22,558 nt of DNA from Escherichia phage MirsaeidiM_Esher6, in the sequence record PQ585404, one strand, 5' to 3'. Below are positions 15,865 through 17,763 of the stretch, piece after piece. Under the pieces are notes generated by a model that was given only the letters and a program-made list of their open reading frames with translations, did not search any database and was not told the DNA's origin. The translations under genes were made by a program, and so were the position numbers. Numbering within the stretch: position 1 is the stretch's first letter; each line of letters opens with the position of its first letter.

Positions 15865-16430
15865 TAGTCCCTCCCGATGTCAGACATCATGTTGTAGCGA
15901 CCAGTGTCCATCTCATACTCCATAACCTGCTGATAGAGTTCTGCTTCCTGCTCACGAAGGTATAGCTCTGACTCCGGGCTACCGAAGAACTTAGCGTTGA
16001 ACTCACGGCTAGCTTTAGTGACGATGTAGTCCCTGAAGACCACAGGCATCTCGGAGAATGGCTTCATCTCCACAAGCTCTACCGTGATAGGGTCGGTGAA
16101 AGTGGTTGACTGAGTGGACAGGTCGTACAGGTATCCACCCATGTTGCTGTAGTAGCTGGTGGCCCCAGCGGTCATTACACGAAGGTATGACGGCAAGAAT
16201 CGAATCCTATTGTCTTGGACATCAGGTGTCAGGACAGCAGCTTCATTGATGTTAAAGTTCCAGCCTTTAGCTTGGACCTGACGATTAACACGATGCAGGA
16301 TACGTTGAGCGTTCGAGACGTCAGCGTTACCTTCGTCAAGCTGTAGGACTGCCGGTTCACCGATAGCAGCTAACATATCGTTGATGGCGTCTAAGTCATC
16401 GTTAGCATTCAGTGGAATGTATTGAGCCAT
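15864..16430 (-). CDS. gp11: Tail tubular protein A (T7 gp11-like)
   Basis: 188 aa; ...AINDMLAAIGEP...AQRILHRVNRQVQAKGWNFN...VTKASREFNAKFFGSPE... matches T7 gp11 motifs. ATG with SD AAGGAG. Confidence 0.88.
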   Translation of the reverse strand: MAQYIPLNANDDLDAINDMLAAIGEPAVLQLDEGNADVSNAQRILHRVNRQVQAKGWNFNINEAAVLTPDVQDNRIRFLPSYLRVMTAGATSYYSNMGGYLYDLSTQSTTFTDPITVELVEMKPFSEMPVVFRDYIVTKASREFNAKFFGSPESELYLREQEAELYQQVMEYEMDTGRYNMMSDIGRD

Positions 16431-16441
16431 AGGTTTACTCC

Positions 16442-16531
16442 TTAACGGTCATAGGCGCTAGACGGTGAGCTGGACAGCAGGTACGCCCAGAATAAGACGA
16501 ATAGTGCTAACCCTGTGTAAATAAGGACCAT
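16442..16531 (-). CDS. Small hydrophobic ORF (29 aa) between the T-phi-like terminator and gene 11
   Basis: Absent from the ORF track. Translation MVLIYTGLALFVLFWAYLLSSSPSSAYDR. SD AAGGAGGG about 4 nt upstream of ATG. Its TAA stop lies inside the gene 11 SD (cgTTAAGGAGtaaacctATG). Confidence 0.4.
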   Translation of the reverse strand: MVLIYTGLALFVLFWAYLLSSSPSSAYDR

Positions 16532-16544
16532 AGTCCCTCCTTAA

Positions 16545-16582
16545 GCAAAAAACCCCTCAAGCACCCGAAGGCACCCAAGGGG
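16545..16582 (-). terminator. T-phi-like transcription terminator after the capsid gene
   Basis: Minus-strand RNA CCCCUUGGGUGCC-UUCG-GGUGCUUGAGGGG followed by UUUUUU. The stem needs G-U pairs, so it forms only on the minus-sense transcript. Very similar to T7 T-phi (AACCCCTTGGGGCCTCTAAACGGGTCTTGAGGGGTTTTTTG). Confidence 0.85.
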
Positions 16583-16588
16583 TTTCAA

Positions 16589-17763
16589 TTAGTTGTTGGA
16601 CTCAGCCAGTTTAGCGGCCCTGTTCGCAGCACGAGTACGCGCAGCTTTCTGTTGAGGAGTTAGAGTCTCCTCTTCAGGTGCAGCCGCTACTGTAGCGACG
16701 TTAGGTTGGCTAAAGGTGCTTACGCCGCTGGGCTGAAAACCAGTGCGCCAGCCGCTTCAGGACGCAGACCACCATGACCCATAGCGTATTTACCAACAAT
16801 CAGGTCACCCTGAGCATCTACGTCACGGTCACGTTCCAGCGCCAAGTCACGCAGCTTCACAGTGCCTACAGCAGAACGGTGAGAGAACAGGCCCACAACG
16901 TTGTCCAGAGCAACTTTAACATCACCAGCAGCAGTAGCTGGGAAGGCGTGCTTCTGACCAGTCGCAATAGTGATACCATCGGCACCACGAGTTTCACCAG
17001 CACCACCCTGAGTCAAGTGTGGAACTTCAACAACCACGAAGCCCATTACGTTACGGATGTTACCAGTCTCTGGGTCAATCAGCGCAGCATAGTTAGCAGC
17101 GTTCGGCATCAGAGCCGCGAGGATTGCAGAGTAGTTGTCAGGCGTGGTGTAGAAGTAACGGTCGCCAGCAGGAACGTAGTTGGAGGTCAGCTTCGCACGA
17201 GCAATGGTCAATTGACCAATGATTGCTTCACCCAGTTTAGCCGGGGTGTTGAGGTCAGCTTTCTTACCAACTCCCAGTACGGACGCAGTGCCCAGACCAG
17301 CGATGTTCTCGTTGGATGCATCCGGGAGGTTACACAGGATCGCCATTTCAGCCAGCACCGCACCATCAGCAGCGATAGCCAGAGCTTCGCCCAACTGGTT
17401 GGAATACTCACCAGCCACGTCGTAGTGGTTCATCGCGTCTTCAATGTCGAAAATCATCACATCGGCAGTCAGCAGACCATCAATGGTAATCACTTTCTCG
17501 GTATGCTTGATACCTTTACGCTTATCGGACAGTCGCTCACCAGGAGCCAGATACACACCAGAGGTGCGACCCATGACCGGGAACTGAGCAGACTTACCGT
17601 TCTGAATGGTACGGACAATATGCTTGTCAGCAGTTACAGAGCGGCGAGTGAATGCGGTCAGGACTTCACCAGCAAATACCTTCAGGAACAACGCTAGAGC
17701 GTCGGAACTGGATTTGCCTTTACCTTGGTCTGTACCAATTTTCTGACCCGGAACGTTTGCCAT
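16589..17763 (-). CDS. gp10B: Minor capsid protein 10B, predicted product of a -1 ribosomal frameshift near the end of 10A
   Basis: Slippery G GTT TTC (plus-strand 16735..16741, complement) lies 4 codons before the 10A stop. The -1 frame stays open for 49 codons (GFQPSGVSTFSQPNVATVAAAPEEETLTPQQKAARTRAANRAAKLAESNN) and stops at TAA 16589..16591, immediately before the terminator hairpin. Confidence 0.6.
16720..17763 (-). CDS. gp10A: Major capsid protein 10A (T7 gp10A-like)
   Basis: 347 aa with extensive identity to T7 gp10A (e.g. LALFLKVF.GEVLTAF, KHTEKVITIDGLLTADV, AILAALMPNAANYAALIDPE, RNVMGF.VVEVPHLT.GGAG, KYAMGHGGLRPEAAG). ATG with SD. Confidence 0.95.
   Translation of the reverse strand: MANVPGQKIGTDQGKGKSSSDALALFLKVFAGEVLTAFTRRSVTADKHIVRTIQNGKSAQFPVMGRTSGVYLAPGERLSDKRKGIKHTEKVITIDGLLTADVMIFDIEDAMNHYDVAGEYSNQLGEALAIAADGAVLAEMAILCNLPDASNENIAGLGTASVLGVGKKADLNTPAKLGEAIIGQLTIARAKLTSNYVPAGDRYFYTTPDNYSAILAALMPNAANYAALIDPETGNIRNVMGFVVVEVPHLTQGGAGETRGADGITIATGQKHAFPATAAGDVKVALDNVVGLFSHRSAVGTVKLRDLALERDRDVDAQGDLIVGKYAMGHGGLRPEAAGALVFSPAA

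Follow-up and report, generated by a model that had tools for sequence, protein, structure and literature searches.

The capsid gene of Escherichia phage MirsaeidiM_Esher6 very probably carries the gene 10 -1 frameshift of T7-like phages

Does the capsid gene of Escherichia phage MirsaeidiM_Esher6 encode one protein or two? The initial annotation of this DNA placed a -1 frameshift site close to the end of gene 10A, from which a longer capsid protein, 10B, would be made. We followed up this claim in the window, by which we mean the whole stretch of 22,558 nt that was analysed (record PQ585404). The locus around gene 10 is a block of structural genes on the minus strand. Gene 10 is immediately preceded by a match to gene 9, the capsid assembly/scaffolding gene in the annotations of Pipis, Penshu1 and K1F, and immediately followed by a match to gene 11, tail tubular protein A. 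Gene 10A itself (17763..16720, minus strand) appears in the ORF list as a zero-frame gene of 347 aa for the major capsid protein. Its product matches the Pfam domain Gp10A-like with E=4e-105 and is 96% identical to PDB chain 9vvq; structures of T7 10A are also homologous. The best DNA identity between 10A and Kayfunavirus capsid genes is 97.7%, and 223 phage records cover at least 80% of the gene. By its sequence, the window belongs to a K1F-like Kayfunavirus. An exact-sequence look-up in a collection of 15 billion proteins found neither 10A nor 10B of MirsaeidiM_Esher6.

The 3' end of 10A reads GCA CTG GTT TTC AGC CCA GCG GCG TAA and contains the slippery heptamer G GTT TTC (G_GUU_UUC; 16741..16735, minus strand) in the X XXY YYZ phase of the zero frame. 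Four sense codons (SPAA) separate the heptamer from the 10A stop (16722..16720), a spacing that had been given in the initial annotation and is borne out by both sequence and phase. A -1 shift would be productive over a stretch of 12 zero-frame codons (16756..16720, minus strand), which extends from a -1-frame TGA (16759..16757) to the 10A stop. The heptamer falls within this stretch, which holds no second slippery heptamer, and no further slippery candidate is in frame anywhere else in the 347 codons of 10A. The string GGTTTTY occurs three times in the 22.5-kb window, namely at the heptamer, once on the opposite strand and once inside the terminator described below, and the heptamer is the only coding-strand copy outside the terminator. 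The site was also said to occupy the same relative position as that of T7. This is correct, as it falls on a homologous Val-Phe (...EAAGALVF in the window vs. ...EAAGAVVF in T7) which is encoded by xTG GTT TTC in both phages. T7 gene 10 (10A of 345 aa and 10B of 398 aa) thus has the identical G GTT TTC, and its 10A stop comes three codons after the site rather than four. In a 2016 review the T7 site is given as G_GU U_UUC, and G_GU sites are described as intermediates between the hexanucleotide and the full heptanucleotide cases (PMC5009743).

The -1 frame is open from 16756 and runs past the 10A stop until it meets TAA (16591..16589). In 10B, the part read in the -1 frame (16738..16589, minus strand) would begin with Phe, re-paired on TTT (16738..16736), and continue with 48 sense codons (QPSGVSTFSQPNVATVAAAPEEETLTPQQKAARTRAANRAAKLAESNN) and this stop. 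The earlier count of 49 open codons is right when it starts from the re-paired TTT, with 48 sense codons following Phe343, and the range of 16589..16745 given for the feature was accurate to within 4 nt. 10B corresponds to join(17763..16735, 16735..16589) on the minus strand; its 343+48 residues agree with the capsid species of 391 aa that had been predicted. The predicted shift junction is ...GALVF|QPSGVSTFSQPNVATVAAAPEEETLTPQQK, the new part of which begins QPSGVSTF. Exactly 44 codons lie beyond the 10A stop in the window, and the number is the same in Pipis, Penshu1 and K1F.

The initial annotation argued that a long open -1 frame placed here was unlikely by chance. The frame is indeed long and open, but its length alone is a weak argument. 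When the sequence was shuffled with dinucleotides preserved (n=20,000), 7.4% of the shuffles kept the -1 frame open for at least 48 codons. The open frame by itself is only mildly unusual (p~0.07), and this agrees with a reading in which the frame is open by chance, or is vestigial, and functional 10B is not made in MirsaeidiM_Esher6. Evidence of other kinds that bears on this reading is given below.

Another route to the same tail would be its synthesis as a separate small protein from an internal start. The record of ETEP21B does annotate a short CDS of this kind, a 39-aa ORF named 'putative minor capsid protein'. No ATG, GTG or TTG occurs in the -1 frame of the window between 16756 and 16589, and the ORF list shows no ORF in the tail region. 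With no start codon available, frameshifting is the only way into the -1 frame, and we give a separately started tail protein almost no credence.

The extension proved to be homologous to the tail of T7 10B. BLASTP aligned the two with E=2e-11 and 64% identity over 36 columns (ATVAAAPEE..ETLTPQQKAARTRAANRAAK in the window vs. STVAASPEE..ETLTPAQEAARTRAANKARK in T7). The T7 tail is 9 residues longer and shares EETLTPxQxAARTRAAN(K/R)A with that of the window. We compared the window with T7, T3 and K1F, with three more Kayfunavirus records from GenBank and another six phage records, and with 78 loci from IMG/VR, the last with capsid identities of 44-98%. The motif LTPxQxAARTRAAN(K/R)A was found behind the same heptamer in Teseptimavirus (T7), in Berlinvirus (P694, CarlSpitteler and ETEP21B), in Kayfunavirus, and in unclassified Klebsiella and Yersinia phages. 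In a multiple alignment of 16 tails, the core of 19 codons has 7, 6 and 18 variable sites at -1-frame positions 1, 2 and 3, respectively. Since this core lies beyond the 10A stop, the third-position pattern is explained only by translation in the -1 frame. Between the tail and those of other lineages, dN/dS is about 0.3 with dS of at least 1.4, a value that is saturated. Judged from the alignment, purifying selection acts on the tail core as a -1-frame coding sequence in at least four phage lineages.

The third-position pattern and the low dN/dS across distant lineages argue against a chance or vestigial frame, and so does the co-occurrence of heptamer and extension among the relatives. K1F has a tail with a single residue changed, and the display of cargo on the end of that tail also speaks for a frame in use. 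On the other side, one close relative (L010) has a deletion of 1 nt at the 10A stop that leaves its tail in the +1 frame and out of reach of a -1 shift, and 10B of K1F has been called 'non essential' in a preprint (bioRxiv 10.1101/2024.10.11.617866). Taking both sides together, we regard a chance or vestigial frame in MirsaeidiM_Esher6 as very improbable.

The co-occurrence was examined codon by codon at the site. A protein-like -1 extension is present in 37 of the 38 distinct sequences with GTT TTY, vs. none of the 18 distinct sequences that have GTC, GTA or GTG before TTY and no alternative A_AAG site (Fisher p=9e-14, with sequences counted as independent of phylogeny). The -1 frame in those 18 is short and unconserved and passes straight through the terminator. 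The complete heptamer G GTT TTC is unchanged in 36 distinct relatives with an extension and is missing from those without one. The third positions of the neighbouring Ala and Gly codons vary freely in the same sequences. Very long -1 or +1 frames in five relatives (L042/L047/L056 and L054/L057) were rejected as extensions; they cross the terminator and run for 217-225 codons, and the -1 frames among them read into gene 11. A third group of relatives is without GTT TTY and has an A_AAG-type site near the stop, as does T3 (C CCA AAG); the extensions of this group match Pfam Big_2 where tested. The comparison shows clearly that, among these relatives, slippery codons are retained only in front of an extension module. 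Close relatives, it further shows, exchange the module at one and the same site, which may be followed by a T7-like tail, by a Big_2 domain (Ig-like) or by a domain of ~90 aa that is unassigned.

T3 gene 10 is like the window in having a -1 frameshift near the 3' end of the capsid gene that leads to a C-terminally extended minor capsid protein. Its site is different in sequence and lies one codon further downstream, and its extension, with 86 codons beyond the stop, is Ig-like (PMC5009743), whereas no Pfam family matches the tail of the window. A 10B of the T3 type was rejected for the window, where the productive stretch has no A AAG site and the tail has no Big_2 match.

The same set of relatives bears on how much of the heptamer the ribosome would use. 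In a variant of the frameshift mechanism, tRNA-Phe alone would slip on U_UUC, so that the hexamer GUU UUC would serve and the full heptamer would not be needed. The re-pairing of GUU to GGU in the P site is imperfect, and the intermediate rank of G_GU sites in the review (PMC5009743) is in line with such a slip. Two relatives (L027 and L028) have C GTT TTC and yet keep an intact extension of ~91 codons; this suggests that the first G of the heptamer is not strictly required. Against the single-tRNA slip it can be said that 36 of the 38 distinct GTT TTY sequences have G as the last base of the codon before GTT. This conservation says little either way, because CTG is the dominant Leu codon in 10A (22 of 31). 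We consider the single-tRNA slip unlikely, though still worth keeping in mind beside the tandem slip that we prefer.

A slip might also occur one step earlier, if the phage RNA polymerase slipped on the T4 run and left one base fewer or two more. The site does contain a short T run, but four T's are far below the run lengths that give productive polymerase slippage. Moreover, it is the phase-specific CTG GTT TTC that is conserved and not any T run. Transcriptional slippage is a known route to alternative C-termini and is a subject of the review cited above (PMC5009743); in the literature on T7 and K1F, however, the event is taken to be ribosomal or translational (PMC5009743, PMC6277420). Slippage of the polymerase is accordingly a highly unlikely source of 10B.

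We read the feature as the programmed -1 ribosomal frameshift of gene 10 in T7-like phages, in its K1F (Kayfunavirus) form, with a probability of about 0.93. The basis for this reading is the site, its phase, the open frame, the homology to the T7 tail, the -1-frame selection, and the joint occurrence of the heptamer and an extension among the relatives. The interpretation of the initial annotation, a 10A/10B frameshift, is supported. The feature is already known, being the described gene 10 frameshift of K1F and T7, and it is nothing new in kind; the original case is reportedly the T7 gene 10 frameshift of Condron, Atkins and Gesteland (1991).

In the mechanism that we propose, most ribosomes would read 10A to its TAA and produce the 347-aa major capsid protein. 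A minority would slip back by one base with tRNA-Val on GUU in the P site and tRNA-Phe on UUC in the A site. The tandem re-pairing would be from GUU to GGU, which is imperfect, and from UUC to UUU, and base 16735 would be read again as the first base of CAG. The shifted ribosomes would then add 48 codons and end at 16591..16589, just before the Tφ terminator. In T7, frameshifting in gene 10 is about 10% (PMC1635266). The resulting 391-aa 10B would have the complete capsid fold plus the tail, and it would co-assemble with 10A as a minor capsid species; its production and its carriage in the capsid are taken from the K1F and T7 literature.

For the elements around the heptamer, the E. coli dnaX gene is a useful comparison; its heptamer A AAA AAG is preceded by an SD-like element and followed by a stem-loop. 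Like the window, dnaX has a -1 tandem slip of the bacterial ribosome on a heptamer of the X XXY YYZ type, with two products from one gene; its frameshift product is truncated, whereas that of the window is lengthened. Unlike dnaX, the window has no SD-like element visible in the ~20 nt upstream of the heptamer (CGTCCTGAAGCGGCTGGCGCACTG) and no statistically supported adjacent stem-loop.

A Tφ-type intrinsic terminator was located by terminator scan and folding at 16586..16547 (minus strand), with the structure GAAACCCCUUGGGUGCC-UUCG-GGUGCUUGAGGGGUUUU plus a T-run. The hairpin has 17 bp (16586..16549), and the T-run occupies 16552..16547. The CCCC core of the terminator (16582..16579) is 152 nt 3' of the heptamer and starts 6 nt after the TAA of the -1 frame, just as the initial annotation had placed the stop 6 nt ahead of the terminator; all of its factual statements hold. 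The K1F terminator likewise lies 6 nt after the 10B stop, and in T7 the 10B stop is again just upstream of the Tφ terminator, with the conserved AACCCCTTGGG...CTTGAGGGGTTTTTT. The hairpin is conserved in 10 relatives, with a few compensatory changes. In those relatives with a T7-like tail that retain the terminator and its CCCC, the two are always 6-14 nt from the 10B stop. The CCCC of the T7 terminator, located >200 nt downstream (vs. 152 nt in the window), is reported to affect gene 10 frameshifting by a long-range effect that is unexplained (PMC5009743). By analogy, our best guess is that the CCCC of the terminator is a candidate distal stimulator in the window, with an effect like that in T7. 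The stimulatory element here is probably distal and would involve the terminator as in T7, perhaps together with a proximal stem.

The candidate for this proximal stem came from RNA folds, in which AGCGGCGU (16729..16722) pairs with ACGUCGCU (16701..16694) to form a stem-loop at 16729..16694 (minus strand). The stem has 8 bp, begins 5 nt after the heptamer, and is found in both the MFE and the centroid structures of the 153- and 198-nt folds. An 85-nt fold gives a different, competing hairpin, and the local fold of the first 70 nt past the heptamer does not beat shuffles (z=-0.01). K1F has a mismatch within the candidate stem. The last residue of 10A is A (GCG) in the window and E (GAG) in K1F, and this change removes the mismatch. 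T7 and Berlinvirus have long local hairpins that differ from one another and start 4-5 nt after the heptamer (4 nt in T7), whereas the window has no such hairpin. Two relatives (L011 and L035) have a hairpin of the Berlinvirus type built from different sequences. An Rfam scan of 16300..17000 returned no family at E<=1. Judged from the folding models, the proximal stem-loop may be a stimulator.

The fold of the whole 153-nt extension, on the other hand, beats shuffles with z=-3.2. It forms a closed domain in which UUCAGCC (16737..16731) pairs with GGCUGAG (16607..16601), at the 3' end of the 10B ORF, and is stacked on the 8-bp stem. The pair probabilities of this closing helix are mostly 0.9-1.0 in the Kayfunavirus variants. 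One variant (L009) weakens the helix; in another (L040) it is re-registered to 12 bp, and the flanking segments look mosaic. No column-wise covariation was found within Kayfunavirus. A clade of Klebsiella phages has an analogous long-range helix of 11 bp. From these models, we think it rather improbable that in K1F-type phages the RNA fold of the whole extension, and not a simple adjacent hairpin, stimulates the frameshift. If it were true, long-range or domain-level 3' structure would be a shared theme, and it might bear on the requirement of T7 for its distal terminator.

Two pairings of the heptamer itself were rejected. In each of the 10 sequences, Alifold paired GGUUUUC with a conserved element, CAGAAAGCU, located ~100 nt 3' of it. 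We do not take this pairing as meaningful, because a 7-mer complement that tolerates GU pairs is expected ~0.7 times in 190 nt (by our own estimate, 64 of the 16,384 7-mers can pair) and because the conservation of CAGAAAGCU is explained by its encoding Q-K-A. Pairing between GGUUU of the heptamer and AAACC in the 5' flank of the terminator, noticed by eye, was considered as an explanation of the T7 CCCC effect. It was dismissed because it follows trivially from the architecture of the terminator (an A-tract plus a C-rich arm) and because it is weakest (4 bp) in T7, where the CCCC effect has been reported.

The tail was modelled by AlphaFold (AF2) from the single sequence. Tail residues 1-27 were without regular structure, and residues 28-48 formed a helix with pLDDT of about 86-90. 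The model predicts a flexible acidic linker (PEEE) of ~27 residues followed by a basic C-terminal helix of ~20 residues (PQQKAARTRAANRAAKLAES), and this helix would be expected on the exterior of the capsid.

The closest known system is K1F. It shares with the window the genus-level lineage, the CTG GTT TTC AGC CCA GCG context of the site and the 44 codons beyond the stop; the nucleotide divergence is about 2-4%, and the single difference in the tail is NRADKLAESNN in K1F vs. NRAAKLAESNN in the window. The 'gene10b' of K1F has been described as a -1 frameshift that adds 44 triplets, and it has been used for display (PMC6277420, PMC13370021, bioRxiv 10.1101/2024.10.11.617866). GFP placed at the end of gene10b gave a stable fluorescent K1F phage (PMC6277420), and SpyTag and Ig-like adhesins were displayed on K1F in the same way (PMC13370021, bioRxiv 10.1101/2024.10.11.617866). 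10B may be dispensable, because the relative with the 1-nt deletion has lost access to its tail and because the K1F preprint calls the protein non-essential. The opposite, that 10B is not dispensable, was speculated for K1F in 2018 (PMC6277420).

Existing records treat this gene product unevenly. GenBank MK903281 (Penshu1) has a joined CDS for the identical tail, under the name 'minor capsid protein ... -1 frameshift'. A CDS for 10B is absent from the RefSeq record of K1F, and in the records of Pipis and PRF-SP2 the name 'minor capsid protein' is put on the 347-aa 10A. Gene 10 of MirsaeidiM_Esher6 should carry a second, joined CDS for the 391-aa 10B, a CDS that many Kayfunavirus records leave out or whose name they give to 10A. 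The C-terminus of 10B is an established low-copy display point on K1F-type capsids, and the same engineering should transfer to MirsaeidiM_Esher6.

Among close relatives of the phage, the extension that follows the capsid frameshift site is not always the T7-like tail of 10B, the 391-aa -1 frameshift product. A -1 extension of ~90 aa replaces this tail after the same GTT TTC in Kayfunavirus-like IMG/VR loci (L012, L014-L024, L071, L075, L076 and L027/L028) whose major capsid protein 10A is 93-97% identical. Its motifs include DVTDWSLL and SYSRRTNSLYFKA...GYDGSPVRSFNV, and no Pfam match was found in the single representative scanned, L015. The slippery site stays constant while extension modules are swapped there among relatives.

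In another IMG/VR locus, L010 (IMGVR_UViG_2974615076_000001), the T7-like tail is retained out of frame. A 1-nt deletion at the 10A stop changes GCGTAAGC to GCGTAGC and moves the otherwise intact tail to the +1 frame. With this deletion, ribosomes that slip by -1 on the conserved heptamer would add only ~15 unrelated residues. The deletion is either a sequencing error or a natural loss of 10B.

In the window, a 29-codon ORF (MVLIYTGLALFVLFWAYLLSSSPSSAYDR; 16442..16531, minus strand) with a strong ribosome binding site, TAAGGAGGG, lies downstream of the Tφ terminator and ahead of gene 11. Small hypothetical ORFs are annotated at this place in the records of the related phages Pipis and Penshu1, and the Pipis counterpart has a predicted transmembrane segment. 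A peptide similar to the ORF product is joined onto the end of the -1 extension in L014. In Yersinia phage AKS2022HT31GU_phi (L090; OR671237), the usual terminator is absent 3' of the 10B stop. Its place is taken by an RBS-like AAGGAGG and a reading frame starting with ATG, which suggests that a gene has been inserted between 10B and Tφ.

In Berlinvirus-type loci (L011, L035 and L085-L087), a two-tier hairpin begins 5 nt 3' of GGTTTTC and spans 5-66 nt after the heptamer (GGCUUAACUUC...GUAGGGGAC-loop-GUCCCUUAC...GAAGUUGAGC), with z = -2.8 to -3.8. Both tiers are built of different sequences in L035 and the architecture is unchanged. The hairpin is a plausible candidate for a proximal frameshift stimulator in the Berlinvirus-type clade; the window does not contain it.

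The 347-aa zero-frame 10A is called 'minor capsid protein' in PV714130 (Pipis), OM867676 (PRF-SP2) and PDB 9vvq. The true 10B join is unannotated in both of these GenBank records, and the K1F RefSeq record has no 10B CDS.

A -1 extension of 471 codons was found in the relatives L043 (IMGVR_UViG_3300034349_000001) and L055 (IMGVR_UViG_3300034127_000003), with ~74% capsid identity, at the capsid 3' end and over ~1.4 kb downstream. G GTT TTT occupies the slippery site in both. At the start of the extension is a Big_2 domain (Pfam E=5e-11), and the ~390 residues behind it carry the motifs IFIHCGTNN and DGTHSN, which, judged by eye, resemble those of SGNH/GDSL hydrolases. This extension could be an enzyme displayed on the capsid via frameshifting.
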